A stretch of DNA of 64,000 nucleotides from a virus (taxonomy: Duplodnaviria; Caudoviricetes): positions 8,369-72,368 of the IMG/VR virus record IMGVR_UViG_3300028805_000101; one strand, written 5' to 3'. The notes beneath the pieces were generated by a model. That model saw only the letters and a program-made list of their open reading frames with translations. It ran no database searches and had not been told where the DNA came from. Position numbers and translations under genes: made by a program. How positions within the stretch are numbered: position 1 is the first letter of the stretch; each line of letters starts with the position of its first letter. Below are positions 337 to 62,546 of the stretch, piece after piece.

Positions 337-675
337 TTAAATCTCCACAAAATCATTATTGATATTTTTAAGTTTTTCTTTAATCTTAATTTCCTTCAAT
401 CTCATAGCGATATTTTTTATTCTTCTATCTATTTCAGCATCATTTGTAAAAGGCACAAACATATTAGGTTCCCATCCTCTAGCCGTTCTATTCAATTTGT
501 TTAAAACAACATAGTTATCATCTATATTGTAAGCAATATATACACCTTCATTATCATTAGTTGATAGCAAATATGTATTATGGTCATCTCTTACACAAAT
601 AGTTAAAGCATCCAACAATAATAAATTCCAAAGTCCATTATCAATAATACATTTTTTTAATTCAGATTTCAACAT
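337..675 (-). CDS. DF-tail family small protein
   Basis: Ends KEKLKNINNDFVEI. Confidence 0.8.
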   Translation of the reverse strand: MLKSELKKCIIDNGLWNLLLLDALTICVRDDHNTYLLSTNDNEGVYIAYNIDDNYVVLNKLNRTARGWEPNMFVPFTNDAEIDRRIKNIAMRLKEIKIKEKLKNINNDFVEI

Positions 676-833
676 ATTTTATCCTTAAAAATACAAGCTA
701 ATAGTCCAATTCCAATGAATACACCATTGGAAATATACAATCCTGCATCGCCTATTGAAAAATAAGCAATAAAATTGCAAATCATGTATAAGAAAACAAA
801 TGTTAAGAATATCTTATCCTTCTTCGTCATCAT
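669..833 (-). CDS. Small two-TM membrane protein
   Basis: Hydrophobic ORF; start moved to MMTKKDK after GAGG SD. Confidence 0.65.
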   Translation of the reverse strand: MMTKKDKIFLTFVFLYMICNFIAYFSIGDAGLYISNGVFIGIGLLACIFKDKIC

Positions 834-1038
834 CAGCCTCACTGATAACAATATATTCATCTTCAGGCAAAATGTTTAGTGAACCCCAAGTTCCAGAAAT
901 AGAACCATCATCAAAAATTTGTTCCACCACACCAGTTTTACCAATTAGTTTACGTTCACTTTCATAGATTTTTCCTGCGAAACCGATAATCTTAATGGTA
1001 TCACCGATCTTTGCTCTAGCATCTTCTATTGTTGTCAT
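814..1038 (-). CDS. DUF4314-like SH3-fold small protein
   Basis: IGDTIKII...GKTGVVEQIFDDGSI..TWGSLNILPED pattern. Confidence 0.5.
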   Translation of the reverse strand: MTTIEDARAKIGDTIKIIGFAGKIYESERKLIGKTGVVEQIFDDGSISGTWGSLNILPEDEYIVISEADDDEEG

Positions 1039-1047
1039 ATTTGCTCC

Positions 1048-1704
1048 TTATGCCACATATAGAATTGTTGGGTTGTCTGGGTGAATTGCAGGTGCAGTTT
1101 CTGGTGCATCTGTGTGAGTAGTTCTAAATTCAGTCCAAAGTTTTTCATAATCGTCTTTATTGAATGGATGCACAATCAGATGCATACCACTCTTTGAATG
1201 GATTTCTTTCATTACGATATATGCAAATTGTGACTTGCACTTATTGACAAGTTTGATTAAATCATCCAAATATGGAAGATATTCTTTATCAACATCTAGA
1301 AGCCAGCTTTTAGATTCCTTTGGTTCACTATTGGACTTACCACATGCAGAACTCAATAGTCTCTCAGGATTCTTGAATGTACCACCTTTCATGCAAGCAT
1401 AAATGTGTTCATAGATTTTCATATTGACATCTTTATTTGAGCGGCGATTAAGACGAATATATGCACGAACATCTTCAGTATTACAAAGATTAATGATTTC
1501 GTCTTTAAATTTATCCAAATCTTCAGGCTTTCTGATAAAATAGTTCTTCAGTGACCTACTATGCATATCACCATGATAAGTAGGATTTTTCTTACCATCT
1601 TTCATCGGGTCATCTGATTGTCTTTTAAGCAACTGAACAAAATAGAAATGTTCTGGCAAATTGAATTTTAGCATTGATTTAATAAGTTCAAAATTATCAA
1701 CCAT
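1048..1704 (-). CDS. Conserved phage protein, possible AEP (primase-polymerase) superfamily
   Basis: YFVQLLKR, RAYIRLNRRS, WLLDVD (DxD) and SKSGMHLI (sxGxH) motifs; start at MVDNF after GAGG SD. Confidence 0.45.
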   Translation of the reverse strand: MVDNFELIKSMLKFNLPEHFYFVQLLKRQSDDPMKDGKKNPTYHGDMHSRSLKNYFIRKPEDLDKFKDEIINLCNTEDVRAYIRLNRRSNKDVNMKIYEHIYACMKGGTFKNPERLLSSACGKSNSEPKESKSWLLDVDKEYLPYLDDLIKLVNKCKSQFAYIVMKEIHSKSGMHLIVHPFNKDDYEKLWTEFRTTHTDAPETAPAIHPDNPTILYVA

Positions 1705-1723
1705 AGTAATTACCTCTATATAA

Positions 1724-1791
1724 AATATAAAAAAATGACCGACAAATGTCAATCATTTTAAACTTAGATTATATGTAAAATTTAATTTACT
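1724..1791 (-). promoter_or_regulatory. Early promoter TTGACA-17-TATATT with upstream TGTAAA-N6-TTTACT box; hairpin over the -35
   Basis: -10 at 1724-1729, -35 at 1747-1752, palindrome 1774-1791. Confidence 0.8.
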
Positions 1792-3460
1792 TATGGATTC
1801 TTCTACCAAGTAAGTTATAGTATTTTCTCTTGTTTGGTTTATAAACATTGACCTTATTCTTTTGCAAGATTATTGTAGGTTGTTCTTCAATGTCTATAAC
1901 AGGTGCAATTTCAACAATAGTATCTTTTACAGTTGAATCTATGTAAATTGGTATGTCATAGTTTATTGTATCAAGTTCACCATAATCATATCTTCTAGCT
2001 TTCAACAATGCATTAGATGTTTCTCTATGCAAGTATACTCTAAATGGTTTGAATTTTATATTCTGACCACATCTTACGAAATCACCAGCCTTAAATCCAT
2101 CTGCGGCTACACCAGCAAATCCATATACATTATTCAGGTCATCACCAAAATCAGAACCATACATGAATCTATGATAAGAATTTAATGACCACTGATTAGT
2201 GGAGTTGTAGACTTTTTGTGGTTCTACAGGTTTAACATTGAATGTTCTAGCAGTAATTTTAACTGTATCAGTTTGTGGAATAATGATATATGGAACACCA
2301 GCATAAAGACTATCACCAGCGACAGCCTTCAAATGGACTTCCCATGTTGGATTTTTATAAATGTCATTCAATTCATAGAAATCAGTATTAACTTCAGACT
2401 TTGCTATGGTTATTGGTAATTCAAGTGTATTATAAGTTCCTGCATTAAATTTTCTATTGAAAATAATTGAATCAACAGTAAATTCTTTATTAAATACAGT
2501 TTCACTCATTGTCTTAGTGTAATTACCATCCAAGACCAATATTTTCTTATTGTCTTTGAACAAAATGGAATATACACCATAATCCAATTTATCAGCTACA
2601 ACAGCATTTTCACTATGGGCTTTTCCAACAGAATTCGTAACATTGTCAGATATGAATGTAGCATTAGAAACATGAGCAGTTCCTTCATATACATCACCAA
2701 TAATTCCACCAATATAGGTAGTTCCGTCAGCAACAACATTTATATTACCTTCCCAAAGAACACTATCTATGGTAACATTTTTCTTTGTCATACCAACAAT
2801 GCCACCAACGAAAGAAAGGTTCTTGACATTTATAGTGACTGCAGAACTAGAATTTTTGATAGTGCCCCAAGTATTACCTGCTATACCACCAACATTCTGA
2901 CCATCACCAAAACCATTCAATACACCTGTAGCAGATGAACTATCTACTAAACCAGTTGCATCCATCCATCCTACAATTGTTCCAATACATATTGCTTTCT
3001 TTTCTTTACCTTCAGCACTATTGTCAATAGCACCTGGTGTTTTACCACCAACACTATAACTTGTGACTGTTATATTGGATAAGTTTAGATTTTTTACAGT
3101 ACCTGACATAGTACCAATGAAACCAAGGTTTTGAGGATAATGGTCATTCAATTTTTTAAGTGTATCACTATCCATATAGTAGTTTGAAATTGTATGGCCA
3201 TTTCCATCAAAGACACCAGCAAATTTAGGTGTTCCAGTTCCAGCTGCTATTGGAATCCATAACTGATTACCATAGTCAATATCAGCCATCAACTTAGCAT
3301 TTAGATTTACATTACTACTATTATACGAATTGACTTTGTCTCGGAACCAGTTAAGGTCTTCAACAGTTTCAATTTGATAATAATTGTTTACATATAATGG
3401 TTCACCAAAAGATAACCCTATAAGGGCTAATAACAATAAGATATGTTTCATTTTATGCAC
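1787..3460 (-). CDS. Secreted GLUG-motif/beta-helix protein with Fibrobacter/Prevotella-type C-terminal domain
   Basis: Signal peptide MKHILLLLALIGLSFG; FAGVFDGNGHTISN; repeated VGGIxG; C-terminal YYNLLGRR. Confidence 0.7.
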   Translation of the reverse strand: MHKMKHILLLLALIGLSFGEPLYVNNYYQIETVEDLNWFRDKVNSYNSSNVNLNAKLMADIDYGNQLWIPIAAGTGTPKFAGVFDGNGHTISNYYMDSDTLKKLNDHYPQNLGFIGTMSGTVKNLNLSNITVTSYSVGGKTPGAIDNSAEGKEKKAICIGTIVGWMDATGLVDSSSATGVLNGFGDGQNVGGIAGNTWGTIKNSSSAVTINVKNLSFVGGIVGMTKKNVTIDSVLWEGNINVVADGTTYIGGIIGDVYEGTAHVSNATFISDNVTNSVGKAHSENAVVADKLDYGVYSILFKDNKKILVLDGNYTKTMSETVFNKEFTVDSIIFNRKFNAGTYNTLELPITIAKSEVNTDFYELNDIYKNPTWEVHLKAVAGDSLYAGVPYIIIPQTDTVKITARTFNVKPVEPQKVYNSTNQWSLNSYHRFMYGSDFGDDLNNVYGFAGVAADGFKAGDFVRCGQNIKFKPFRVYLHRETSNALLKARRYDYGELDTINYDIPIYIDSTVKDTIVEIAPVIDIEEQPTIILQKNKVNVYKPNKRKYYNLLGRRIHK

Positions 3461-3626
3461 CTACTGACACACTTGGGTCAATAAATACAGGAATTGTTGA
3501 CCCAATTTCACCTTCTTCTTCACAGCCATAACAAGAATCTTGTAGCAAATCAATCTTAGAATTTAGATTTACTACCTCGAGTTCAGGCTTTATGTATTGT
3601 TTCTTTTCTTTATTTTGTTCATTCAT
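3453..3626 (-). CDS. 57-aa peptide with YxxPxL motif
   Basis: MNEQNKEKKQYIKPELEVVNL...LLQDSCYGC; AGGAG SD. Confidence 0.7.
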   Translation of the reverse strand: MNEQNKEKKQYIKPELEVVNLNSKIDLLQDSCYGCEEEGEIGSTIPVFIDPSVSVGA

Positions 3627-3642
3627 AGTATATCTCCTAAAT

Positions 3643-3807
3643 CTATTTATATTCCTTGCATCTGCCACATTTGCTACAGCGTTTGTATAATTGGTCAGTA
3701 TCTGTTCTTTCCACTATTTCCCACTCGTGTTTGCAACGAAGCTTAAAATAGGACAAAACATAAACTGCCACAATCAGTATGAATCCAAATATAATAAGAT
3801 ATATCAT
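3643..3807 (-). CDS. Small TM protein with zinc ribbon (not in ORF track)
   Basis: Manual translation MIYLIIFGFILIVAVYVLSYFKLRCKHEW...RCSKCGRCKEYK. Confidence 0.7.
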   Translation of the reverse strand: MIYLIIFGFILIVAVYVLSYFKLRCKHEWEIVERTDTDQLYKRCSKCGRCKEYK

Positions 3808-3840
3808 AATGCGTAAAATATAATTAAATTTTACAGTTTG

Positions 3841-4173
3841 TCAACTTTTGCCAAAATCTTTGCTTAATTCCATTTTTCTGGCATTTGTAAATTGTTTCTT
3901 ATGGTATAAAATAAGAAAATTGTATTGTCTTTTATAATAATCCAGCGAATAGTTTAAATGGTTCAATGTTGTATCTTCAATAATTGTTCTATGTTGTACA
4001 TAACTTACCATTATAAAGTTTTCATCATAGAGCAAGTTATATGTATCTGCGAGAAAACCGTGAACTCTTAAGAATATTTGATTTCTATAAAATATTGAAA
4101 ACCCATCGGATTGTTTCCGAATGTCATACAGCTCATTTGAGTTAGCCCAAGCTAGAATTTCATCTTTTGTCAT
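3841..4173 (-). CDS. DF-tail family small protein
   Basis: Ends ARKMELSKDFGKS. Confidence 0.8.
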   Translation of the reverse strand: MTKDEILAWANSNELYDIRKQSDGFSIFYRNQIFLRVHGFLADTYNLLYDENFIMVSYVQHRTIIEDTTLNHLNYSLDYYKRQYNFLILYHKKQFTNARKMELSKDFGKS

Positions 4174-4439: not shown

Positions 4440-4441
4440 AA

Positions 4442-5121: not shown

Positions 5122-5151
5122 ATCTAATAATATAACAAAATATTTATAGAA

Positions 5152-6704: not shown

Positions 6705-6705
6705 A

Positions 6706-8108: not shown

Positions 8109-8451
8109 ATTTTACTCCATGTTTAATAATATCACAAAAATAATGAAAATATACAATCCAACAGTAATTATAATATCAATCTTACTGGTCTTCTTAAATT
8201 CATTTATTGCTTCAGAATTATCTGCAATTGGTCTAAATGATAATTCAGTATTATCATTAGAATCATTACTTTTCAATAACATCTATTATTCTCCATACAT
8301 TATTATGGAATATAATAAATATTTCACAGATTGGCAATATTGTAAACTACAACACCCAATATAATCCATGAAATAATAGACATAGTAAGTATTACTGTGA
8401 ACTTTGTTATCTTTGACAAATGTTGTTCTTTATTTATAATGTTGTCGCTGT

Positions 8452-9195: not shown

Positions 9196-9669
9196 TTAGA
9201 AATCCCAGTTATCAAGTATTCTGATTTGACTATTCTTTATTTGTTTAATCATTCTATCAGCCTTTTGCTTGTCAATGATTTCGTCAATATCACATTCACG
9301 GATATTAAATGCATTGTCTTCAGAACTACTGATATATGCGGAAGTCCAATCACTCGTTAAATGCTTAATCTGTTGCCATTCATCATTGTACTTAATATGG
9401 ACTACTTTTGCATTTGCTTTGAAAAATCCTTCACCTCTATACTTAATATCCAAGATATGAACAATCTTAATATCATTTGGATTCTTTATGGTGTTAGTCA
9501 TACTAACTGTTCTACCATAGAAGACTAGATATTTGCCACGATACTTTTCTTCTAGGATTTCTTTTTGTTCTATTTGTTTGGCTTCTCGTATTTCTTCCAA
9601 TCTCTTATCAGCCATATCACGAATTTGCTTCAATTCAGTTTCGTCTGTAATTGTAGTTAAATCTATCAT
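9196..9669 (-). CDS. Hypothetical protein
   Basis: Start at MIDLTT after GAGG SD; ends NWDF (possible DF-tail variant). Confidence 0.7.
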   Translation of the reverse strand: MIDLTTITDETELKQIRDMADKRLEEIREAKQIEQKEILEEKYRGKYLVFYGRTVSMTNTIKNPNDIKIVHILDIKYRGEGFFKANAKVVHIKYNDEWQQIKHLTSDWTSAYISSSEDNAFNIRECDIDEIIDKQKADRMIKQIKNSQIRILDNWDF

Positions 9670-9686
9670 ATTAGTCCTCAAGTTAA

Positions 9687-10618: not shown

Positions 10619-10619
10619 A

Positions 10620-23983: not shown

Positions 23984-24263
23984 TGAAGTCCTTATTCATC
24001 TTCATTTTCCTAAGATCAATCTCATGTTGCTTTAAATGTAGTTGATATTCAGTATATTTTTCAAGAAATAATTTTTCAGTAACATTATCCAAATCCATAT
24101 AATCTCTATCAAATATAAAGAAAAATCTATCTGTATCTGTACTATAAACAAATAAATTTCTCTTTATGCCATTTTTGTCAGCGGTTACTGCATATAATGA
24201 TGGTAATTCAATTGTATATAGACCAAGCTGTTTAGAATAGTCTAAAATTTCTTGTATAGTCAT
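23979..24263 (-). CDS. DF-tail family small protein
   Basis: Ends LRKMKMNKDFM. Confidence 0.8.
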   Translation of the reverse strand: MTIQEILDYSKQLGLYTIELPSLYAVTADKNGIKRNLFVYSTDTDRFFFIFDRDYMDLDNVTEKLFLEKYTEYQLHLKQHEIDLRKMKMNKDFM

Positions 24264-24589
24264 TTAAAGTCACCATTAACATCTTCAATCTTATTTTCTA
24301 TTTCAAACTGTTTATCCAATAGGATAAATTTGTTTATTTTGTCTTTGGCTTTATCATAGTCATAATACGAATCTGAACCCCAGAAAAGACTTTTCTTGCA
24401 ATCTATACCTGAAGCAATAAGACACATGTTCTCATTACATCTATATTGCATTAGAAAGCCTGCATAGTTTTTATACTTAACATTTATCCACTGGTCATTA
24501 TTAACCGGATGAGTCTTAAATCCAAATTCATTAACCAATGTATAAAATATTTCTTTCGGATCCATTAGTCTTCTCTCTTCTTCAGCCAA
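24260..24589 (-). CDS. DF-tail family small protein
   Basis: Ends NKIEDVNGDFK. Confidence 0.8.
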   Translation of the reverse strand: MAEEERRLMDPKEIFYTLVNEFGFKTHPVNNDQWINVKYKNYAGFLMQYRCNENMCLIASGIDCKKSLFWGSDSYYDYDKAKDKINKFILLDKQFEIENKIEDVNGDFK

Positions 24590-29408: not shown

Positions 29409-30089
29409 TTAACAAAGATCCTTCAAAATGTCAATGTTTTTTTGAAAAATAACTTTCATTTTATCTAAATGTAAATGTTTTTCATTGCTTAGCTGTTTAA
29501 TTTGTTCTTTCAATAGATTAATTTCTTGTTCTTTAGCTTTAATAATATCACTATATTCAATAATTCCTTTATTATGAATTAACTTATTAAACTGGTCTAT
29601 ATTGTCCTTACTGGCATTAAAAGCCTTTTTAATTGCTTTAACCAAAGAATCAATGTTTGTGACTTCAAAGTCAATAGGAACATTTGTCATATTAAAATAT
29701 TTCGCAGTAAATTTATCAAAATAAACTTCTTTACTGCCAAGTATACTATAAAATATGTTAAAATCTATCTTATCAAATAAAAGTCTATTATAATTAAGAT
29801 TAGTCAAATGGACAACCTTATCACTCATTGTCTTATCAAATACAGCCGAACAATATATCATATTACACTTATCATTAATATATGATACATCCATAAAATC
29901 ATTATCTACATTAAAGAATTTTATAGGAAAAGACAATTTGATAGTAGTATTAGAACATTCCACAATATTCACTGGTACACTATTGACTTTTAAAGGTAAA
30001 ACATCTTTACATTTTTCCTTGAAAATTTTGCCAATTCTATGTAAATATTCTCGGTCATTTGCTGTAATATTATCTATTGTCTTTGTCAT
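29409..30089 (-). CDS. Hypothetical protein with C-terminal coiled coil
   Basis: 226-aa ORF, ATGA overlap. Confidence 0.7.
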   Translation of the reverse strand: MTKTIDNITANDREYLHRIGKIFKEKCKDVLPLKVNSVPVNIVECSNTTIKLSFPIKFFNVDNDFMDVSYINDKCNMIYCSAVFDKTMSDKVVHLTNLNYNRLLFDKIDFNIFYSILGSKEVYFDKFTAKYFNMTNVPIDFEVTNIDSLVKAIKKAFNASKDNIDQFNKLIHNKGIIEYSDIIKAKEQEINLLKEQIKQLSNEKHLHLDKMKVIFQKNIDILKDLC

Positions 30090-30706
30090 ACAAAATCCTT
30101 CATCATTTGTCTCTTTCGCTTTAAATCTAATGCTTCCTTTTTCTGCTTTTGTGTTAAAGCAGCCATGATATTTCGCTTACTATGCATCAATTTTTTAATT
30201 TGTTGGTCAATATCATTCATCTTATCATACATAACTTTATAATTATTGAAATCATCTATTGTATTCTGATTATTGCACCAATCATTAAATGCAGAAATAT
30301 TATTATAAACTGTATTTAATATCTTATCTAAAGTAATTATCAAGGTATTTATTTTTGAAAAATCCTTCCACACACTAATACAAATAATATTAAATATATT
30401 ACTTGACAGCTTAGTTGTAATACCATTTTTATTTGCCCAATAATTATAAAGTTCGTACTTACTACTAACAGAAAGAAAATTAGGATTTTGTAATGTATGG
30501 ATAGACAATCTACACTTTTTATTCTTAAATGGTGTTATAAAACAACAACACGAAGTATTATTTAACAAATTACCAAATTTTTTAAATGGTTCTGTCTTCT
30601 TAAAATTAATGTACAGCTCATCAATATTATTTTTTCTTTCTAAGACAATATCAGTATTTCTAAACTTATGTTTTTTAAGTTCACAGAACAATGAATAAAA
30701 ATCCAT
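30086..30706 (-). CDS. DF-tail family protein (long member)
   Basis: Ends LKRKRQMMKDFV. Confidence 0.75.
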   Translation of the reverse strand: MDFYSLFCELKKHKFRNTDIVLERKNNIDELYINFKKTEPFKKFGNLLNNTSCCCFITPFKNKKCRLSIHTLQNPNFLSVSSKYELYNYWANKNGITTKLSSNIFNIICISVWKDFSKINTLIITLDKILNTVYNNISAFNDWCNNQNTIDDFNNYKVMYDKMNDIDQQIKKLMHSKRNIMAALTQKQKKEALDLKRKRQMMKDFV

Positions 30707-35557: not shown

Positions 35558-35914
35558 TTATACAACACACCACAAGACACAAATCGCATCGTGAGGAATA
35601 ACTCCCTTAGTTCCATTGAAGAAAATATCCCACATTTCATCAGTAAACTCTTTTAAATTCTTACGATCTTTACAATTTTCTTTTTCCATTTCACGATGTG
35701 CTTCAGCAGTAATCCAACAAAGTTCTGAAATTGAAATAATGATTGTTTTTGTTTTATCAGAAACCTTTGACATTTTAGCTGCTATCCAATCAAAATCATA
35801 AAATGTATGTGCGTAGATGGCATCTGGTGGTAAAACACCAATACCATTCCAGTTATAGAATGCTTCTCTTGCTTCTTTGCTATGCCAAATTTGAAGGTGT
35901 GTATTCATAGTCAA
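35558..35914 (-). CDS. Hypothetical protein
   Basis: 118 aa after promoter. Confidence 0.7.
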   Translation of the reverse strand: MTMNTHLQIWHSKEAREAFYNWNGIGVLPPDAIYAHTFYDFDWIAAKMSKVSDKTKTIIISISELCWITAEAHREMEKENCKDRKNLKEFTDEMWDIFFNGTKGVIPHDAICVLWCVV

Positions 35915-35959: not shown

Positions 35960-36391
35960 TCATTCAAAGTCTTTATTGATTTTCTGCAAATTGTTATAGC
36001 GTTTAATCATCTTATAATAGATATCTGGATAGCCATTCAAAGACTTATCACTTATATAAGTACCTATCTGTGTAATACAATAATATTTAGTTTCTTCATT
36101 AAAATCATAAGCACAGAATTCTTTCCATCCAGTAAATGCATTTAAACAACCATCAAGCAATCTACTATATTTTTGTATTTTTAATGATATATCTGTTATA
36201 TGAATAAAAGCACCATCATAGATCTGTGGTTTAAATTCATTATCGTAATCTTGCTTGTTTATATAAATCATGAACCCATAAGACGGTTCATTACGAACAT
36301 AAAAACCTGCATTTTCATAGCTTTCAACAAGTTTATACATTAGATCTTTATATACTGGAAATCGTACTTTATCAATTTGCCTATTCTTCAT
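35960..36391 (-). CDS. DF-tail family small protein
   Basis: Ends NNLQKINKDFE. Confidence 0.8.
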   Translation of the reverse strand: MKNRQIDKVRFPVYKDLMYKLVESYENAGFYVRNEPSYGFMIYINKQDYDNEFKPQIYDGAFIHITDISLKIQKYSRLLDGCLNAFTGWKEFCAYDFNEETKYYCITQIGTYISDKSLNGYPDIYYKMIKRYNNLQKINKDFE

Positions 36392-36693
36392 TTGAAGTCC
36401 TTTTCAATAGTTTTTAATTTTCGTTTAACCAATATTTCCTTATATTGACCCATTAGTTTAGCCAATTGTTGTCTAGCTTGCTTAGGTCTTAATTCCAATG
36501 CACCATAACAGCAGATACATTCACCGCAATCTATCAATGTACCAGCAACAAGGAACATATCCTTATAATAAAGGAACTTTAATATGAAATCAGCTGGATG
36601 AATATATGGCCAAGAACAAATATAACCCGTATGTTTTAAATTTAAATGGAACTCTTTAGCCATTTTATAATATTCTTCACAATATGGTGTCAT
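36388..36693 (-). CDS. DF-tail family small protein
   Basis: Ends RKLKTIEKDFK. Confidence 0.8.
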   Translation of the reverse strand: MTPYCEEYYKMAKEFHLNLKHTGYICSWPYIHPADFILKFLYYKDMFLVAGTLIDCGECICCYGALELRPKQARQQLAKLMGQYKEILVKRKLKTIEKDFK

Positions 36694-37097
36694 ACAAAAT
36701 CCGTTTTCATAGTTTCAATTTTATCATTTACAATAATTTCTTTTGCAATTCGTCTATTATTGCTAATAATAGCTTTAATTTCTTCCCAATTGGCTTCATC
36801 AAGTAACACATTAACAAATCGTGTAATGTATTTCAATTCCGGTCTTGCTGTGTCAAAAACTTTATATGAATTGTCTCGATTTATTACATCAAAATCTAGT
36901 TCAAATTTTCCACCATGTGTCTGAATAATAGAAAATCGTAAATGTGACAAATTATTAATATGTAAGTACATATCACATCTGTTAACATTTGACCTATACA
37001 TAAAATTATGCCAATCATCAGTATATTTTGTCTTATATCCCATTGAAAGAACATAATCATGGATTTTTATTAGATTATTTGATGTTCCAGCAATCAT
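36690..37097 (-). CDS. DF-tail family small protein
   Basis: Ends DKIETMKTDFV. Confidence 0.8.
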   Translation of the reverse strand: MIAGTSNNLIKIHDYVLSMGYKTKYTDDWHNFMYRSNVNRCDMYLHINNLSHLRFSIIQTHGGKFELDFDVINRDNSYKVFDTARPELKYITRFVNVLLDEANWEEIKAIISNNRRIAKEIIVNDKIETMKTDFV

Positions 37098-37399
37098 TAT
37101 TTAAAGTCCTCTTCAATAGTCTGTAATGCTGCTTTGATTTTTCGTCTCTTTAAGTCTGCCATTAGTTGATTTAATTGTGATTCAAATTCATTCTTATTAC
37201 AGGTCCAATATCTCCAATTTAATCCAAAAGATTCAAGTTTACAGACTTGTGCTTTCTTATTCAAATATTGCACCACGATAGCACCAGAATAAAATCCATA
37301 TCCTGGTGGAACATCATAATAATATGGTGTTTCTTTATTTTTACGAGGAACAAAACCATATTTCTTACACAGTTCATTATATTCGTTTTTAGTAATCAT
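37097..37399 (-). CDS. DF-tail family small protein
   Basis: Starts MITKNEYNELCKKYGFVP; ends AALQTIEEDFK. Confidence 0.8.
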   Translation of the reverse strand: MITKNEYNELCKKYGFVPRKNKETPYYYDVPPGYGFYSGAIVVQYLNKKAQVCKLESFGLNWRYWTCNKNEFESQLNQLMADLKRRKIKAALQTIEEDFK

Positions 37400-37779
37400 T
37401 TAAAGTCATTTCCGATAGATTTTAGTTTTTTACTAATATAAAACTTTTTAACGTCTTTTTCAATATTTGTAAGATATAATTCAAAATCATTTAATGTTTT
37501 TATTGGATTATATTCTTCAAGATTCTTATTTCTATCAAACATTAAATTGCCAAACATATCTTTTACTATTACATTATAATAGCGTATAATTCCTGTATTA
37601 ATGTCATTTCTAAATATATCAAAATTGTAGCTTGCAACTGTTTTATAATCTCTATAATATTTACCGTCCTTAAATAATATTTTCAAATTATATCTCTGTA
37701 TATCTTCTGTATAACTTCCCTTCCAAAAAAATTTATTCCGATGTTTGTGTACAATTGACATAATATCTTCTTTTTTCAT
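37396..37779 (-). CDS. DF-tail family small protein
   Basis: Ends KKLKSIGNDFK. Confidence 0.8.
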   Translation of the reverse strand: MKKEDIMSIVHKHRNKFFWKGSYTEDIQRYNLKILFKDGKYYRDYKTVASYNFDIFRNDINTGIIRYYNVIVKDMFGNLMFDRNKNLEEYNPIKTLNDFELYLTNIEKDVKKFYISKKLKSIGNDFK

Positions 37780-37824
37780 ACAAAATCCTTTTCTAATTCG
37801 TAAATATTTTTATCACTCTTATAA

Positions 37825-38157
37825 TCATTCAAAGTCTACACTAAAAGCATCTTTTCGTTCTCTAATTTTTACTACTTTAACAGTTTTAACTATTTTCTTC
37901 GCCATTCTTAAGATATTTCTGTATTTTGTATTATCTCTCATATCAGTGTGATAATAGTTGATATTATCAGCAAGATGGCTATAAAAAGAATTAGTCTTTT
38001 CAACAAATGTAAAACAAATATGGCCGTCATAAATGAAATCATAAAATCTAGTTACGGAATTTTCATTATTCAATATCTCAAAACCAAGATTCACTAAATC
38101 TTTCTCAATTTTATTCATGAACACTTTAACATGCGGATATACAGTATCAATGTTCAT
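37825..38157 (-). CDS. DF-tail family small protein
   Basis: Ends ERKDAFSVDFE. Confidence 0.8.
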   Translation of the reverse strand: MNIDTVYPHVKVFMNKIEKDLVNLGFEILNNENSVTRFYDFIYDGHICFTFVEKTNSFYSHLADNINYYHTDMRDNTKYRNILRMAKKIVKTVKVVKIRERKDAFSVDFE

Positions 38158-38639
38158 AAGAAATCACTCCTAAATGACTGTAATTTGTCTTCCATTTTCT
38201 CAAATAGTTTTCCATTCATTAGACGAGTAAAACAGAACTTCAAAAATTCAATGATTTTATCTTCAGTTGAATTGTCAATGTCTTTTTGATACATTGTATC
38301 ATGTTTACATCTTTCATCAGATATAGAGAAACAAGATATATAACCTTTAGAAGAATCCCAGATTTCTGACGGATTTTCTTTAATTGGATATGCATTTCTA
38401 TTATACTTATTACCAGATGGATAATAAACAAGACGAGTCATCGCAGTCACACAATAAATGTTTCGTCTATCAGATTTATTCATCAAATCATATATATCAC
38501 CATAGAATCTAACAGCACCAATCTTGTTTGTTCCATATAAGAAATCAAACCAGCCAATATTCCAATCAAAATTTGTATCTAAGCCCATTGACTTAGCGAA
38601 CTTCAACAGTTTCTTCTCAAATCGCTTAGTCATTTTCAT
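38154..38639 (-). CDS. DF-tail family small protein
   Basis: Ends DKLQSFRSDFL. Confidence 0.8.
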   Translation of the reverse strand: MKMTKRFEKKLLKFAKSMGLDTNFDWNIGWFDFLYGTNKIGAVRFYGDIYDLMNKSDRRNIYCVTAMTRLVYYPSGNKYNRNAYPIKENPSEIWDSSKGYISCFSISDERCKHDTMYQKDIDNSTEDKIIEFLKFCFTRLMNGKLFEKMEDKLQSFRSDFL

Positions 38640-38640
38640 A

Positions 38641-38931
38641 TTAGACTTCCTTCTTCACAATTGAAAGATTCTTTACTTCCGTAATAGGCTTAAATTCAAC
38701 ATAGTAGCAAGGCTTTTCATTTGTAAATATTGGTTGAACATTAAATCTTTCAGCCAAGTTAGGATGCTTTTTCAAAAATTCTTTTGCTTCCTTATTGTGG
38801 TGGAATCCAACAGCCTTACCAGGTTCGTCTGTAATCAAAACATTACCTGCATCATCCATACCAGCAAAATAGTAGTAATGGTATTCGTATGTGTTCTTGC
38901 TTTCAAGTGTGTAATAAGTGAAGTCTGCCAT
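38641..38931 (-). CDS. Hypothetical early protein
   Basis: 96 aa, GAGG SD, first gene after promoter. Confidence 0.75.
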   Translation of the reverse strand: MADFTYYTLESKNTYEYHYYYFAGMDDAGNVLITDEPGKAVGFHHNKEAKEFLKKHPNLAERFNVQPIFTNEKPCYYVEFKPITEVKNLSIVKKEV

Positions 38932-38953
38932 AAGTTACCTCTTTTGTTGTTAT

Positions 38954-39029
38954 CTAAGTTTAAATATAGAAAAAATATCAACTTATGTCAATAACTTAAA
39001 TAAAAAATAATGTAAAATTTTAATTTACA
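38954..39029 (-). promoter_or_regulatory. Early promoter TTGACA-17-TATATT-TAAACTTAG with TGTAAA-N7-TTTACA box
   Basis: -10 38963-38968, -35 38986-38991, palindrome 39011-39029. Confidence 0.85.
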
Positions 39030-39060
39030 AAGTCACTATTTAAATCTTCTATTTTAGTAA

Positions 39061-39459
39061 TCATACAAAATCCTGCCCAATTTCTACGATTTTCTTTTTT
39101 GATAATTCTTCTTTCAATTCTTTTGAATACATAGCTTTCATTTGAACTGACGTATTGATAAATGCAACCAATCTCATTAAATAGTCTTCTATGACTTTAA
39201 AATCTTTAGTTATAGCACCAGGAAAAAATGTTTCATACTTAAATGTACCTGTTCCACTAATACCATAATATAAGTCTGCATAATCAACATTACCATTAGC
39301 TGGTGTATAAGACATTAACAGTACACTCTTTCCTTCAACACCATATTTTGTGGTATTCAAGTACAAATTCCAACTATCTCTTTCTTTGGTGTTTAGAACG
39401 AAATGTTCTTTATACCTTTCAATCAAGTTTTTAAAATCTTTTGGTCTAATCTGACTCAT
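39061..39459 (-). CDS. DF-tail family small protein
   Basis: Ends KKIVEIGQDFV. Confidence 0.8.
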   Translation of the reverse strand: MSQIRPKDFKNLIERYKEHFVLNTKERDSWNLYLNTTKYGVEGKSVLLMSYTPANGNVDYADLYYGISGTGTFKYETFFPGAITKDFKVIEDYLMRLVAFINTSVQMKAMYSKELKEELSKKKIVEIGQDFV

Positions 39460-39794
39460 TTGAAATCCTCATTGATTGATTTTATCCTAGATTTCATTTT
39501 TGCTTTCTTAAACTTATATTCACAATTTCTTACCCATTTAACAATTGTTTCAATTTTTTTATATTTTAGTTGTTTATCTCTATACAAGACTTTTCCATCT
39601 ACTGTAGCAGCCAACCGGAATATACTTAATGACTTATCCCACCAGCAACAAGCAAAATTTCGTTCATCTGTTCGGTCGCCATAAGTAATTTGCGGCAAAT
39701 ACACAGAAGTAAAAATATTATTAGGATTTAGTAATTTCCATCCAGTTATTTTTGACAGTTCTGGTAAATCAGTATAATACATAATAAGTTCCAA
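39456..39794 (-). CDS. DF-tail family small protein
   Basis: Ends SRIKSINEDFK. Confidence 0.8.
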   Translation of the reverse strand: MELIMYYTDLPELSKITGWKLLNPNNIFTSVYLPQITYGDRTDERNFACCWWDKSLSIFRLAATVDGKVLYRDKQLKYKKIETIVKWVRNCEYKFKKAKMKSRIKSINEDFK

Positions 39795-39806
39795 AATTTT
39801 GTAAAA

Positions 39807-40241
39807 TTATTTAAACATTTCAGCAACATCTTGTTTTTTCATTTGGATCTGTATTGTCTTGTATGACAATATAAGTTTTCTAATGTGGTTTATTGTAGTA
39901 TTATTACACTTATTATCGTTATATTCATTTCTTTCTCTACTAGCAGATATAAAACTATTTGTACCTATACACTTATCACCAATATAATGAGATATGCTAT
40001 GAAGATTAAGTTTTTGTATCAATGAACATTCTATCCAACATTCATTTTCCCTAGTATATTTAAATTGAATGTCGCCTAATTCATATCCATTATATGTAAT
40101 CGTGTAAATTAATATACCACTGTCTTTCATATCTAAGACAGTTATAACACAGCCAATAGCTCTAATTTCCTTTAACAAGAAATTATCTAAATAATTCTGC
40201 AGATTTTCACTAGAATGTATTTCTGGATATGTGAATTTCAT
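39807..40241 (-). CDS. DF-tail family variant (MF)
   Basis: Start at MKFTYP; ends MKKQDVAEMFK. Confidence 0.7.
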   Translation of the reverse strand: MKFTYPEIHSSENLQNYLDNFLLKEIRAIGCVITVLDMKDSGILIYTITYNGYELGDIQFKYTRENECWIECSLIQKLNLHSISHYIGDKCIGTNSFISASRERNEYNDNKCNNTTINHIRKLILSYKTIQIQMKKQDVAEMFK

Positions 40242-40248
40242 ATATGAT

Positions 40249-40277
40249 AATTTAACAAAAGATTGAGATTTTGTCAA
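40249..40277 (-). promoter_or_regulatory. Promoter TTGACA-17-TAAATT at the late/early block boundary
   Basis: -35 40272-40277, -10 40249-40254. Confidence 0.6.
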
Positions 40278-40282
40278 ATTTA

Positions 40283-42730
40283 TCAATATTCTATAAATTC
40301 GGATGATAATATACCGTTTGAACCTCTATCAAATGAACAGATAGTTCGTTTACTATTAGTCCAAGTAACATTGTCTATACGAATATACACATCTTCAAAT
40401 CCTGTTTTTACAATACCACCTGAGCCATTCATTTTCATGGCGGGAATACCACCCTGATGATTTACATAAGCACCAACAGAACCCCACCAGTTACCAGATG
40501 TACCATTATTACAGCACCAATAAGTATTTCCATTATTATGATACAAACCACCAAAACCGTGAGATACATATCCTTCGGTTAAAATTCTTGTAATGGCACT
40601 AGCTGTAACATCAGCAAATACAGCCACATTTGGATTTTTAGACTGAATCCATCTTGCCTTATATATTGGTGATGTAGTTTCTTCTTGCTGAATTACCATA
40701 AATTCCCATTTATCCACCATATCACAAATAGAGCCATCAAAGAATCTATTGGTATCTTTATACACACCTGTTCTAAATGGATCTGTACCAGTAAATAAAT
40801 ATGTAGCAGGTGCATTATGATGAACTATCCTTACCCAACAAGAACCATCTGGTTCAAAATATAAATTTGTATCGTATTTACCTGGAAGTTCAGATATATT
40901 TGATGCTTTTGATATACCCGTTCTTGTATGTGAGATAATTGAATTACCTTCTTCAATAGATGTTGTAAATAATTCTCCTTTATTGGATATAGAAATTGGA
41001 TTATTATATAATGCTTTTACATCTTCTGGTGATAATGCTTTTCCATAAATTCTAAAATCGGACATCATTCCCTGAAAATAGTTTGAATCACTTAATGAAT
41101 CGGTTGAAGATCTACCTAAACTTGCTTTATTATTTGATTTTGAAAGTGTAGAACTAGCAGTGACACTTGAAACTTGAACACCATTCAAATAAGTAATTTT
41201 ATTACCACCATATTTCCAGGTCACAGCAAGATGATACCATTTATTGCTTACCAAGGTTGTACTACATGTTGTTTGATTATCATCATCTACTCTTAATTTA
41301 CTTCCTATAAGAAATATACCTATGGCTTTACCAGTTGTAGTTCTACCATTCCAAATACATTGTTGTTTAGAAATACTTGAACTATTAAACCACAATGATA
41401 TAGTAAATTCTTTAGTTGTTGATTTTATTGGATCTGGTATTGGATATATACAATTACCACCTGATATATTTAGAGATCTTTCATATCTAGGTGTAGAATT
41501 ATTTGTTGTAAGTGTTCCATTAAGTGAAGAATGTCTACTATATCCGCTTACATCCTCCACTGTATTTAAACCATATCCAAGCATGGTATATTGTGGTTGA
41601 TTTGGTCCTGGTACGAATGTAGTATAACTATCTTCTTCTATTTTAAAATCCCAAAAATAATGTGTAATTGAAGTTGAACCATCTGAATATAAATTCGTTC
41701 TAAATGTTATATCTTGAGCATTACTTGGTGATGTCCATTTCCATACATATAAATTATTTTGCGGATCATTTATATAAATGTTATTTACATTTAAATTTGG
41801 TGCAGAATCATATTGACCTATAGCTTTTGAAGTACCTTGATTTCTTAAATATAAGAATATAGTAAACTGGTTTCTTTTCGCTAATGTATCAATACTTTCA
41901 TGTGCTCCAGGCACAGCATCACTATGTACAGTAATATAATATACTTTTCCTGGTGTTAAAGTTACAAGAGAATCATTACCTAAATATTTCATACCATCTT
42001 TTGCAGAAGTAGTATGTACAATTGGATTGGATTGTGAATATTCTCTTGACCAAGTTAATAAATTTGGATTTCCAGGTAAACTATTTACTTCATCTAATTT
42101 ATAGTGTATTAAAAGTCCATTAGAAATTTCATGAATTTCTTTATCACTTAATGTATTATTATAGATTCTAAAATCACAGATTGAACCAATTAAAGGATAA
42201 ATGTTTCCACCACTATAATAGAAACAACTTAAACCTACACCAACACTTTCTGCAAAAGTAGGTAATGTACCACTAAATGTAGCAGTAGTTTTTAAAGTAC
42301 CATCAAGATAAATTTTAATTTCCGTTCCTTGTCTAGTAAATGTAATATGATGCCATTCATTATCTGGTACACCAGTAACTTCCCAAAATGTTGTACCAAA
42401 TACTATACGAACACTTGTAGTAGAATAAACTTGTAAACCATATCCCCTACCACCTGCATCGGCTCTACCGTTAGTAAATGCCCACATAGAATTTGCAGTT
42501 TTTGCTGAAAAGTTTTTATTTATCCAACAACACCAAGAAAAATCGTCATTTATAAAATTTAATTCCGTTGTAGAAGTAGTAATTCTTTGACCAGCATTAT
42601 TATTAAATGTAGCACAACCACCAATAGGGCTAGTATTACCCCAAGATGCAGGTGAACCTGTAGTATAATAATCTGATATACCTTGATTCTTGTTATCACT
42701 AATTAAGGGCAACCATAATTTCAATGCCAT
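40283..42730 (-). CDS. Virion protein with two LamG/concanavalin-A-like domains (putative adhesin/receptor-binding protein)
   Basis: WHHITFTRQG, ICDFRIYNNTLSDKEI, WYHLAVTW, MSDFRIYGKALSPEDV. Confidence 0.8.
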   Translation of the reverse strand: MALKLWLPLISDNKNQGISDYYTTGSPASWGNTSPIGGCATFNNNAGQRITTSTTELNFINDDFSWCCWINKNFSAKTANSMWAFTNGRADAGGRGYGLQVYSTTSVRIVFGTTFWEVTGVPDNEWHHITFTRQGTEIKIYLDGTLKTTATFSGTLPTFAESVGVGLSCFYYSGGNIYPLIGSICDFRIYNNTLSDKEIHEISNGLLIHYKLDEVNSLPGNPNLLTWSREYSQSNPIVHTTSAKDGMKYLGNDSLVTLTPGKVYYITVHSDAVPGAHESIDTLAKRNQFTIFLYLRNQGTSKAIGQYDSAPNLNVNNIYINDPQNNLYVWKWTSPSNAQDITFRTNLYSDGSTSITHYFWDFKIEEDSYTTFVPGPNQPQYTMLGYGLNTVEDVSGYSRHSSLNGTLTTNNSTPRYERSLNISGGNCIYPIPDPIKSTTKEFTISLWFNSSSISKQQCIWNGRTTTGKAIGIFLIGSKLRVDDDNQTTCSTTLVSNKWYHLAVTWKYGGNKITYLNGVQVSSVTASSTLSKSNNKASLGRSSTDSLSDSNYFQGMMSDFRIYGKALSPEDVKALYNNPISISNKGELFTTSIEEGNSIISHTRTGISKASNISELPGKYDTNLYFEPDGSCWVRIVHHNAPATYLFTGTDPFRTGVYKDTNRFFDGSICDMVDKWEFMVIQQEETTSPIYKARWIQSKNPNVAVFADVTASAITRILTEGYVSHGFGGLYHNNGNTYWCCNNGTSGNWWGSVGAYVNHQGGIPAMKMNGSGGIVKTGFEDVYIRIDNVTWTNSKRTICSFDRGSNGILSSEFIEY

Positions 42731-58976: not shown

Positions 58977-59000
58977 AACAATATATTTATGAACACATAT

Positions 59001-60492: not shown

Positions 60493-60576
60493 ATTTAACC
60501 TATTATAACGAATTCAATATAGAAAAAGGATAACCAATAATAGTTATCCTTTCGTTTTATTTATATATGTAAACTT

Positions 60577-60873
60577 TTATTCATAGCCTAAGAAATTAAT
60601 CTCAATAGCCATTTTGTTCAATTCAGCACCAAAATATTTAAAACAGTATTCAGGTCCTTTCTTTAAATATTCAGGTAAATTATACAATTTAAATTTTAAA
60701 ATTCTTTCTTTATTTTTTACATGACCTTCAAGATCCAATTCATTTGTTCGGTATATTGAAATATGTACAAAATTTTCTTCACCTATACTTGCATAGACAT
60801 AAGCATATTTATCATTATCTGTTTTACATATATAATCCCAGTCATCAATGTCATAATTATACGTGTGAATCAT
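60577..60873 (-). CDS. Hypothetical protein, paralog of 60950..61267
   Basis: MIHTYNYDIDDW...KGPEYCFKYFGAELNKMAIEINFLGY. Confidence 0.75.
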   Translation of the reverse strand: MIHTYNYDIDDWDYICKTDNDKYAYVYASIGEENFVHISIYRTNELDLEGHVKNKERILKFKLYNLPEYLKKGPEYCFKYFGAELNKMAIEINFLGYE

Positions 60874-60949
60874 AGTTCTATAACATAATCCTTTATTTTA
60901 ACTGAAATTTCTTTTCAATGTATCACCCTGTATAATACCAAGAATCTTT

Positions 60950-61267
60950 CTAGTAATAGCCTTTAAAATTCAACTCTATTTCCATTTTATCAAGTTCATT
61001 GTCAAAGAATTTCTTACAAAATTCAGGACCTTTCATTACAATCTGTCTTAAATTGAATCTCTTATTTGCTACACAGCAATATCTACTATTTTGACTTCTA
61101 TGTTGAGGCCAATTCATATTTTTACTATCGGACCTAAATAAGGATATTGATATTATATCCGGATTCTCTTGAAATGCAACCACGAAACAATATTCATACT
61201 GTTCTATTAATGGTACATCACACCATTTTTTCCAGTCATTCAAGTCCCAGTTATATTTCTTTATCAT
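60950..61267 (-). CDS. Hypothetical protein, paralog of 60577..60873
   Basis: MIKKYNWDLNDW...KGPEFCKKFFDNELDKMEIELNFKGY. Confidence 0.75.
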   Translation of the reverse strand: MIKKYNWDLNDWKKWCDVPLIEQYEYCFVVAFQENPDIISISLFRSDSKNMNWPQHRSQNSRYCCVANKRFNLRQIVMKGPEFCKKFFDNELDKMEIELNFKGYY

Positions 61268-62166
61268 AGGTCTATTATGTAATCGTTATAAGTTGTTTCT
61301 CTTGACTTACGTTCTAGTTGCTCACCTGTATAATCCCAGGTATCTGCATATCTATCATATTCTCCAGGATAACCATAAGGATTACATAGAATTTTTATGA
61401 TATTTCCTTTTGAATTTTTATATGTACAGATTTTCTTATCGTGTATATGTCCGCATAGCCATATTGTTCCATTATCAAGTTCTTCTAGATACTTTTCTGC
61501 CTTGAAATAGAAAAATGTATTTGTATTGCTATTCCTATATTTCCAATTTATTCCTACTTCATAAGGTGCAAAATGAGTTACAATAATTTTTGGTTTTTTC
61601 TTTACAAAATCCATTAACATATTATCGTAATGGTTCCAGATTTGTTCAGGATCTTGATTAAAATAATTCCAGTAATTACCATCAAACCAGTTATTCTTCC
61701 ATTTTTGTTTTATATCATAATAACCCGGTTCAACTTTCAAATCACAACTTGCCATACATCCAGCAATTCCATTTACAATATTACCTTCCAACAAATGAAC
61801 ATTGTCAAATGAAGAACAGTATTCTTTTATCTTCTCAATCTTTTCTTCAGATGTATTGAATTGAGCATTTGATTTAGATGGTGTAGCACCTTTTATAACC
61901 AAATCATGATTACCTAAAGTCCAGAATACTTGCAAGTACTTAGACGCTAGCCATTTTATTTGGCGAGATAATGTTAGATAATCATTTGACATGTCTCCCG
62001 CTATAATGATTGCTTCTGTGTCAGGAATTGAATATGATTTCCACTGCCATTCTAAAGTTTCAAAGACAACACTTTCTTTTGGGTCATCTCCATTAATTCT
62101 TGATGGTTTTACAGCATAAGAAAACCACATGTCAGAATGTATGTCAGATATCAGTAATGTTTTCAT
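61264..62166 (-). CDS. Calcineurin-like metallophosphoesterase
   Basis: SDIH, AGD, GNHD, THFAP, GHIH motifs. Confidence 0.9.
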   Translation of the reverse strand: MKTLLISDIHSDMWFSYAVKPSRINGDDPKESVVFETLEWQWKSYSIPDTEAIIIAGDMSNDYLTLSRQIKWLASKYLQVFWTLGNHDLVIKGATPSKSNAQFNTSEEKIEKIKEYCSSFDNVHLLEGNIVNGIAGCMASCDLKVEPGYYDIKQKWKNNWFDGNYWNYFNQDPEQIWNHYDNMLMDFVKKKPKIIVTHFAPYEVGINWKYRNSNTNTFFYFKAEKYLEELDNGTIWLCGHIHDKKICTYKNSKGNIIKILCNPYGYPGEYDRYADTWDYTGEQLERKSRETTYNDYIIDL

Positions 62167-62546
62167 TCAAAATCTTTTTCTATTGTTTTTTTCTTTTTTT
62201 CAGAATCAAACATCTTAGGTATAAACTGCAGTTGATTTAAAATATTCATCATTTTGATTACAGCTTGTTCTAACTCATTATAATCGTTAAATTGGATAGA
62301 ATTAGAATAATTTATCTTATATTCATTTGTATAAACATCAAAGTTAAATTCAAGACCACACCAGAATTCAGCAGTCAAATAAGTATCATTATCATATTTA
62401 ACTACATCTATCAACGGTTGCCATTCATCAACATTATACTTATTTTCAGGCAAACTTCCTGTACATATTACTTCGCTATAACCAGTATCAAAAACTAAGC
62501 CATATTTTTCACATAAGGCTTTAATGTTATTTTTGGTAATTTTCAT
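62163..62546 (-). CDS. DF-tail family small protein
   Basis: Starts MKITKNNIKALCEKYGLV; ends KKKKTIEKDFE. Confidence 0.8.
   Translation of the reverse strand: MKITKNNIKALCEKYGLVFDTGYSEVICTGSLPENKYNVDEWQPLIDVVKYDNDTYLTAEFWCGLEFNFDVYTNEYKINYSNSIQFNDYNELEQAVIKMMNILNQLQFIPKMFDSEKKKKTIEKDFE

Follow-up and report, generated by a model that had tools for sequence, protein, structure and literature searches.

The small genes scattered over a 64-kb stretch of viral DNA (positions 8,369 to 72,368 of the 72-kb IMG/VR virus record IMGVR_UViG_3300028805_000101; hereafter the window) raise a simple question: why do so many of them, with bodies that can hardly be aligned to one another, encode proteins ending in the same aspartate and phenylalanine (D-F), followed by at most a few further residues? 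The answer obtained here is that these genes constitute a new, uncatalogued protein family, which we call the DF family, and that the two terminal residues are the end of a constant amphipathic C-terminal helix of approximately 34 residues. With 24 members in the window, comprising 21 strict D-F proteins and one E-F, one M-F and one D-L variant, the family accounts for 27% of the called genes and about 14% of the DNA. The phenomenon is known in kind, while its scale is unusual.

Among the 89 non-overlapping minus-strand open reading frames (ORFs) of at least 50 amino acids (aa), 23 end in D-F plus one to four residues, compared with approximately 1.7 expected from the frequency of the DF dipeptide, so the motif is far from being no commoner than chance, the first condition under which the initial annotation would have abandoned it. 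On the plus strand, the corresponding count is zero among 101 ORFs, and no other dipeptide approaches DF in frequency close to ORF ends. In 21 of the 23 cases the ORF does not exceed 210 aa and has I, L, M, V or F three residues before the D, and genes with this strict tail represent 21 of the 63 small genes. The initial annotation had listed 23 ORFs, the 21 strict ones along with an E-F and an M-F variant, and all of them lie on the minus strand exactly where it had placed them and end as it had described, including the hydrophobic residue in every strict member. Its observation that both synonymous codons are used at each position was also borne out, with D encoded by GAT 12 times and by GAC 9 times, and F by TTT 16 times and by TTC 5 times. 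Among approximately 95 members, drawn from several phages, there is a single replacement of D (by E) and a single one of F (by L). Because variation at the two codons is nearly all synonymous, although GAA or GAG and TTA or TTG would be equally suited to an RNA signal, selection acts on the protein, as had been proposed. As a separate observation, GAC is used at D in 9 of the 21 tails, compared with 21% of Asp codons genome-wide, which may be tied to the overlapping initiation region discussed below.

The conserved part extends well beyond the last residues. In a DF-anchored profile of 37 members (21 from the window and 16 from other contigs; positions counted from D as 0), Lys occupies −14 in 95%, Lys or Arg −7 in 89%, and a hydrophobic residue −3 in 100% of sequences. 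A hydrophobic stripe with a spacing of 3-4 residues can be traced to approximately −32, and its phase shifts near −12 to −15. Likewise, in 53 members from a sister lineage, the phage record IMGVR_UViG_3300031994_001875 (G001; 133 kb, approximately 35% complete), Lys at −14 is present in 83%, and hydrophobic residues at −15, −12, −6 and −3 recur together with D-F. The hydrophobic face is broad in the first half of the helix, while the last two turns present a narrow stripe (−10, −6, −3 and +1) flanked by conserved charged residues 7 positions apart. F is followed by no residue in 15 members, by one in 60, by 2-5 in 14, and by 10-12 in two. The short C-terminal tag of the initial annotation was consequently not retained, the conserved element being this long amphipathic helix instead. 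An external helix model, that is, a profile of the 34-residue block constructed from the 16 non-window members only, scores 16 of the 23 candidates first listed for the window higher than any other ORF on either strand; the best non-member reaches 4.3 bits, and the match always lies at the extreme C-terminus. As the model was made from other phages only, this validation is independent of the window sequences. In orthologue pairs, the middle of the protein changes approximately 1.6 times faster than the helix.

In regard to the spread of the family, HMMER was run exhaustively against 1.84 billion representatives and retrieved 19 proteins at E ≤ 1e-3, of which 13 are window proteins or their close orthologues and the remaining six are distant relatives, all with the ending. 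This threshold was passed by just 13 of the 23 members in the window itself, so the result is a floor and not the true range. Contigs carrying distant matches proved rich in members: L005, a scaffold of 376 kb, has five within 20 kb, and four of the five ORFs of another contig, L007, belong to the family. Other genes of L005 are shared with the window at 28-70% identity and its promoters are of the same type, which places this scaffold in the clade of the window. Two single-protein queries against IMG/VR found nothing; a query with two aligned sequences of a conserved neighbour gene led to G001. The coding strand of G001 bears 55 ORFs with the strict DF tail, compared with one on the opposite strand, and strict members account for 53 of its 258 non-overlapping genes (21% of the genes and 17.6% of the coding capacity). 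With four additional members, in which −3 is Ala or an extension of 12 residues is present, the total is at least 57. Since close relatives of the window sit on contigs of 266-376 kb and the record is 18% complete according to CheckV, the window is a portion of an uncultured jumbo phage genome some 400 kb in size, and by extrapolation a complete genome plausibly holds on the order of 100 copies.

Searches of Pfam-A, PHROGs v4, NCBIfam and PADLOC with the first 10, with 40 and with the 53 G001 members gave isolated single-member chance matches, none of them shared, and sequence-profile searches of the PDB returned 2gsl_A as the best match of the whole family (E 1.1) and a designed tetratricopeptide repeat as the best match of the helix (E 0.34). 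The statement of the initial annotation that no family of this architecture had been described thus holds for these databases, and two surveys of gut jumbo phages contain no mention of such paralogue families. The closest precedent in kind is the expansion of approximately 35 zinc-ribbon copies in Bacillus phage G, which was called unprecedented (Iyer et al. 2021, PMC7824862); such jumbo-phage expansions were read as specific regulators or conflict proteins (PMC7824862). The DF family likewise has the marks of a lineage-specific multigene expansion of jumbo phages, with dozens of highly diverged paralogues of one small protein per giant genome that are kept in relatives. It differs from the zinc ribbons in lacking CxxC...CxxC or any other catalogued domain (Cys residues number 0-7 per member, follow no pattern and are never conserved), in its conserved part being a terminal helix with the rest unalignable, and in its density, as 24 members in 64 kb and at least 57 in 133 kb of G001 represent a fifth to a quarter of the genes. 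One uncatalogued family thus makes up such a proportion of the sequenced parts of at least two giant ruminant-gut phage lineages and a large share of the "dark matter" of these genomes. Its signature (Lys at −14, a hydrophobic residue at −3, and D-F ending a long helix) is searchable and permits annotation where ordinary homology search fails.

The members in the window are listed in Table 1. Of the variants put forward initially, the E-F protein is supported by both a BLASTP match to a strict member and the helix model, whereas the M-F protein ends as described but obtains only weak support from that model and is included as a probable member. The D-L protein, absent from the earlier list, is the 24th member. 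Two paralogous genes at 60577-60873 and 60950-61267 (BLASTP E 2e-15) encode proteins ending in I-x-x-N-F-x-G-Y-x with Lys at −14, and may either have branched off from the DF family or form a small family of their own. The 161-aa ORF at 9196-9681 has an exact W-D-F end and Lys at −14 together with a coiled-coil-like N-terminus and no hydrophobic residue at −3, and its membership is uncertain. The longest ORF at 24260-24589 begins at TTG, and its orthologue P0013 starts 8 codons further in, so the called start is probably too far upstream.

Table 1. DF-family genes, their remnants and the associated promoters in the window (bits for the helix refer to the external helix model).
Feature	Position	Strand	Remarks
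DF member, 112 aa	337..675	−	h-x-x-D-F plus 3 residues; helix 21.7 bits
DF member, 110 aa	3841..4173	−	helix 18.2 bits; last gene before promoter, uncoupled; orthologue P0025 at 92%
DF member, 102 aa	6396..6704	−	top helix score, 23.7 bits; L005 orthologue 34% vs neighbour 5906 at 70%
DF member, 114 aa	10274..10618	−	tail and N-terminal helix motif; best match of exhaustive profile search
DF member, 118 aa	12863..13219	−	tail plus 4 residues bearing AAGGAG of next gene
DF member, 109 aa	13212..13541	−	tail; profile match
DF member, 94 aa	23979..24263	−	tail; uncoupled, last gene before promoter; helix 10.0 bits
DF member, 109 aa	24260..24589	−	tail; helix 20.1 bits
DF member, 143 aa	26303..26734	−	tail; uncoupled, last gene before promoter; profile match
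D-L variant, 226 aa	29409..30089	−	BLASTP to 30086 E 1.6e-4; K-14, K-7, I-10 and I-3 in register
DF member, 206 aa, longest strict D-F	30086..30706	−	tail; profile match over C-terminal 135 aa; no L001 orthologue
E-F variant, 102 aa	33390..33698	−	BLASTP to 37097 E 1e-6; best own-genome profile match; replaced in X5 strain
DF member, 121 aa	33698..34063	−	tail; leave-one-out body 12.3 bits, above all non-members; absent from L001
DF member, 143 aa	35960..36391	−	tail; uncoupled, ends 8-gene operon; L001 orthologue truncated by TnpB insertion
DF member, 101 aa	36388..36693	−	tail; helix 21.7 bits; dN/dS 0.66 vs L001
DF member, 135 aa	36690..37097	−	tail; helix 15.2 bits; orthologues P0004-P0009; dN/dS 0.26
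DF member, 100 aa, AF2-modelled	37097..37399	−	pLDDT 75; helix 14.3 bits
DF member, 127 aa	37396..37779	−	tail; helix 13.0 bits; dN/dS 0.36
Decayed member, last ~13 tail codons	37776..37815	−	h-x-x-D-F-V-stop, 19 open codons; aligns to L001:9185-9628 tail
DF member, 110 aa	37825..38157	−	tail; uncoupled; dN/dS 0.58
DF member, 161 aa	38154..38639	−	tail; AF2 pLDDT 58
Decayed member, 14-codon mini-ORF (start and tail)	39020..39064	−	aligns to last codons of L001:7734-8039
DF member, 132 aa	39061..39459	−	tail; helix 10.6 bits; no L001 orthologue (cassette difference)
DF member, 112 aa	39456..39794	−	tail; helix 13.0 bits; dN/dS 0.29
Probable M-F variant, 159 aa	39807..40286	−	profile match; helix 4.9 bits; 4-nt overlap with end of 815-aa virion-protein gene
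DF member, 127 aa	62163..62546	−	tail and N-terminal motif; leave-one-out body 12.6 bits
Promoter −35 elements	62828, 38991, 35955, 35518, 33362, 31607, 27221, 26264, 23945, 12068, 11091, 9715, 3844, 1752	−	

The codons of the tail have a second use. Of the 23 first-listed members, 16 are translationally coupled to the following gene by an ATGA or TAATG overlap, among them the one at 337 (its downstream gene begins at base 336), and in 11 of the coupled members the F codon ends 2 nucleotides (nt) before the next ATG. The codon preceding D ends in G in 9 of the 23, compared with a background of 13%, which places GGA 6-7 nt upstream of the ATG, and where a single residue follows F its codon usually ends in A, completing the ATGA overlap. 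The tail therefore doubles as the initiation region of the next gene, which explains the prevalent one-residue ending and offers a clean case of two constraints acting on the same codons where phage operons are densely packed. This also suggests an explanation in which D-F would not be a protein feature at all, its codons being conserved as a ribosome-binding site and coupling junction or as a recombination junction for cassette exchange. In addition to the coupling, two decayed genes with intact versions in a syntenic relative (L001) have kept exactly their start codon and last ~13 codons; for the remnant at 37776-37815, L001 holds an intact 147-aa gene whose body is missing in the window. 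Furthermore, in three cases the codons just after F of a DF gene or remnant overlap the operator-like palindrome of the next promoter; in the 39020-39064 remnant, the overlap involves its F-V-N codons. However, six members without a downstream gene in reach, each the last gene before a new promoter, also keep D-F, so the motif is not confined to genes where it forms the Shine-Dalgarno sequence of the next one, as the initial annotation had considered. In addition, the changes at D and F are nearly all synonymous, conservation reaches 14-30 residues upstream, and the ratio of nonsynonymous to synonymous substitution rates (dN/dS) of the helix, 0.43, is below 1. Since uncoupled members retain D-F and conservation extends so far upstream, the nucleic-acid signal is a second layer of constraint and not the cause of D-F; as the sole cause it is largely refuted, and we give it next to no probability.

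The relationship between the bodies is more difficult to establish. The initial description of the middles as unalignable was accurate, since 65 of 93 bodies remain singletons at E ≤ 1e-3 once the last 36 residues are removed. In leave-one-out models, about 10 of the 23 window bodies outrank nearly all non-members, and a relationship of the remainder is neither shown nor excluded. No homologue of a body lacking the helix was found, the only strong links between members and non-members leading to variant-tail proteins, and no tail-less member was found among non-members. Because no body was found without it, we read the helix as an integral part of one highly diverged family and not as a movable tag grafted onto unrelated proteins. 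Thus, the architecture of a variable body and a constant C-terminal element, as originally envisaged, holds across phage lineages, while the notion of a separable tag was given up. The N-terminal helix that had been reported for many members is real and enriched, but partial: the motif h-x-[DE]-h-h-K-x-aromatic-G-[LF] (h, hydrophobic) is present in its loose form in 58% of 40 members and 14% of non-members, and in its strict form in 36% of members. It shows no cleavage-site pattern, unlike the capsid-targeting sequence of T4-type internal proteins, which ends in a prohead-protease site.

Structure prediction with AlphaFold2 (AF2) suggests how these parts could fit together. For the 100-aa member at 37097-37399, modelled from the family alignment, a helix (residues 4-13), five sheet strands of 3-5 residues each and a continuous C-terminal helix (residues 69-99, pLDDT 87-92) are predicted. 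The model of the 161-aa member at 38154-38639 contains a helix at 5-17, four strands, a helix at 126-160 and low-confidence insertions, so that both models have the same order of elements and a terminal helix of 31-35 residues. Foldseek found nothing at E ≤ 1e-3 in PDB and BFVD, and the ESM Atlas returned unnamed viral clusters only. A wide search with VIA retrieved generic two-layer sandwiches with Z of 5.0-6.3 over 74-92 residues, a level below that considered informative for the tool and at which many unrelated folds are tied. Among them are frataxin/CyaY, the "double-wing" domains of YjbR, PSPTO_3016 and the T4 MotA C-terminus, Med17C, and the FP domain of Fbxo7. They resemble the AF2 model in having an N-terminal helix, a five-strand meander and a C-terminal helix, and differ in lacking any sequence relation and in that most of them end 10-15 residues short of the DF-protein C-terminus.

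Such a fold could by itself be sufficient to explain the conservation. The whole helix, including D-F, would in that case be the buried spine of a common alpha/beta sandwich, with F plugging the core, D capping the helix or forming an intramolecular salt bridge, and no partner shared among members; each copy would act independently by way of its variable surface. The lack of body homologues without the helix fits this explanation, as do the co-conserved N-terminal helix in over half of the members, the regular 3-4 spacing of hydrophobic positions up to F, the common element order of the two models with the highest pLDDT at the tail, and the likeness to frataxin-like and YjbR-like two-layer sandwiches, whose terminal helices pack on the sheet. 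On the other hand, near-invariant Lys at −14 and D at 0 among paralogues with about 15% identity would be unusual for a purely structural helix. Both persist in members without the N-terminal motif, in which the basic residue at −7 is also retained, and the helix is longer than the small sheet. A charge coupling between the N- and C-terminal helices was not detected either (best score 5.0, null median 6.2), although with 27 sequences this comparison is underpowered. All considered, we regard a purely structural role as the strongest competing explanation, though a rather unlikely one.

The genomic context of the family points to the kind of process in which it could take part. A strong TTGACA-N17-TATATT promoter is present in 14 copies in the window, all on the coding strand, compared with 0.27 expected. 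It is often preceded by a TGTAAA-N6-TTTACA palindrome and often followed by TAAACTTAGA. The same promoter was found in 24 copies on the coding strand of G001 and in none on the other, and in five copies in L005, all on the coding strand. Operons headed by it hold DF genes together with ligase, NAD-salvage and sigma-factor genes, and DF genes are absent from the large structural-gene blocks in both the window and G001. As the DF genes are located in sigma70-type operons outside structural blocks, we infer early expression dependent on the host RNA polymerase.

This context also bears on the capsid-packaging receptor that was among the partners originally suggested. In such a scenario, the helix would load the proteins into the procapsid or a phage compartment, like the T4 capsid-targeting sequence, the C-terminal helices of scaffold proteins or the cargo peptides of encapsulins. 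Many different small proteins with one constant terminal element would suit this logic, and three members directly follow the gene of an 815-aa virion protein with no promoter between. In phage T4 and its relatives, the internal-protein (ip) loci are polymorphic, and at least one T4 internal protein counters host defence. Their constant element stands at the N-terminus and is removed by cleavage, and the proteins that carry it are virion components. T4-type internal proteins have an N-terminal capsid-targeting sequence (PMC7697877). The DF family shares with them the many unrelated-looking small proteins with one constant terminal element and the variation of loci between related phages. In contrast, the DF element is a C-terminal stretch of about 34 residues that is predicted to belong to the fold, with no evident protease site or linker before it, and most DF genes are located behind sigma70-type promoters with ligase, NAD-salvage and sigma-factor genes, none of them in structural blocks. 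Loading into capsids is consequently disfavoured, and we consider it very improbable.

The reading that we tentatively prefer, although we would not go so far as to call it probable, is that an exposed patch common to all members makes the same contact in each of them, while the variable sheet provides specificity. A member would consist of a beta-rich middle whose length varies and the constant amphipathic helix of ~34 residues, and would often also begin with a short helix. The broad hydrophobic face of the first half of this helix would serve as a spine packed on the sheet, and the last two turns would form the surface common to all members, most likely contacting one shared partner. The variable sheet and loops could give each copy its own target, and the family, with its early-looking promoters, may then act as a repertoire of host-directed proteins for takeover or counter-defence. 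An exposed patch is favoured because a helix of 31-35 residues exceeds what the small sheet can bury and because most fold matches stop 10-15 residues early. The near-invariant Lys at −14 and D at 0 lie on one helical face, which is compatible with a common contact and is no proof of it.

Several observations weigh against this preference. The basic residue at −7, so frequent in the lineage of the window, is present in only 32% of the G001 members, which shrinks the surface that could be common, and a merely structural helix end would be conserved as well. The better of the two models has only moderate pLDDT (75), and both were built on the family's own alignment and are hence biased. Early timing has the promoter type as its sole basis, and no promoter separates the three members behind the virion-protein gene from that gene. 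In contigs from RNA libraries (X6 and X8), exact matches to several DF genes and to structural genes have a similar low depth, at which transcripts are inseparable from carried-over DNA; parts without RNA-library cover carry no meaning.

A more specific possibility is that the helix is a docking handle, by which on the order of 100 diversified binders would plug into one machine, such as a host protease, the RNA polymerase or a phage assembly, as adaptors or decoys that redirect or block numerous host proteins simultaneously in early infection. This would be loosely similar to the ankyrin/F-box-like families of poxviruses, and we find it rather doubtful. If the helix were indeed a common handle, the family would represent a natural library of binders on one scaffold. 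Alternatively, the shared contact could be between the members themselves, with the last two turns acting as a coiled-coil-like interface for homo- or hetero-oligomers. The narrow a/d-type stripe (−10, −6, −3 and +1), the conserved charges at g-like positions 7 apart, and the presence of the Fbxo7 FP domain, a dimerisation module, among the fold neighbours would be in line with self-association. However, only about 14 residues are available for it, and one interface in 50-100 co-expressed paralogues would lead to promiscuous cross-pairing, so it appears improbable.

A known short linear motif would be another form of common contact. The sliding clamp had been named among the candidate partners, and an acidic residue and Phe near the C-terminus are superficially similar to clamp-binding peptides (those of T4 gp45, the beta-clamp motif QL[SD]LF, or PIP-like peptides) and to free-carboxylate motifs such as the tip of the single-stranded DNA-binding protein (SSB) or PDZ ligands. 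Yet the tail has no conserved Q, and its adjacent D-F with an obligatory hydrophobic residue at −3 is unlike QL[SD]LF or Q-x-x-h-x-x-a-a. Moreover, 0 to 12 residues follow F, the element is predicted to lie in a long helix and not in a flexible tail, and 20 to 100 clamp clients per phage would be implausible. The clamp is accordingly disfavoured as a candidate, and a motif of this class seems scarcely credible. Recognition of a free C-terminus, as in SSB tips and ligands of PDZ domains or tail-specific proteases, is also unlikely, as the aromatic residue is the last one in only 15 members. Taken together, the partners put forward initially seem unlikely. Mimicry of the K-D-F-like tail of Firmicutes primary sigma factors was considered separately and rejected. 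The register misfits, since a basic residue would stand in those factors where the family has its invariant hydrophobic residue (−3); the sigma factor of the phage itself has no such end, and the helix profile matched no sigma chain in the PDB.

Comparison of strains provides insight into the way in which the family evolves. Eight orthologous DF genes of the window and L001 have dN/dS of 0.26-0.66 (pooled 0.40), compared with 0.02-0.19 in neighbouring enzymes and 0.37 in a fibre-like virion protein. Judging by these substitution patterns, the DF genes are real genes under purifying but relaxed selection. Gene content changes as well, as four window members have no orthologue in L001 and three L001 members are missing from the window. 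In the strain of run X5, the segment 33307-34343 with three genes (34081, 33698 and 33390, two of them members) is replaced by 912 unrelated bases. This site lies between the ligase stop codon and the next promoter, and L001 has three different genes there. A TnpB element at the end of the DF array of L001 has cut short the orthologue of 35960 and taken the place of 35558. In L005, the orthologue of 6396 has diverged to 34% identity while the neighbour 5906 keeps 70%. Early-type promoters, relaxed purifying selection and the turnover of cassettes between strains are hallmarks of host-interaction or counter-defence genes.

Some additional observations concern the same region and its surroundings. 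Across 35960-40286, pooled dS relative to L001 is 0.13 in the DF array and 0.37 in neighbouring genes (two of them at 0.75-1.0), that is, approximately three times lower in the array, which hints at recent exchange between strains or mosaic ancestry. Two genes outside the family, at 38641-38931 and 35558-35914, are each the first behind a promoter in or beside the array and have no counterpart in L001. Genes for IS605-type TnpB are located at L001:11119-12324 and at record bases 1122-2309, upstream of the window.

As for the remaining content of the window, its long ORFs lie on the minus strand throughout and its G+C content is about 31%. Recognisable genes encode GroEL, a split NAD-dependent ligase, an NAPRT-like enzyme, an M18 aminopeptidase, a helicase and a sigma factor, and there is a block of very large proteins, one of them of virion type. 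No relative of the 1615-aa protein, the 1332-aa protein or a DF-family member was found among GenBank phages, and the matches of GroEL were uninformative. The use of Shine-Dalgarno sequences and the promoter type suggest a Firmicutes-like host, and DNA of the window occurs in gut metagenomes that several studies obtained from sheep and bovines.

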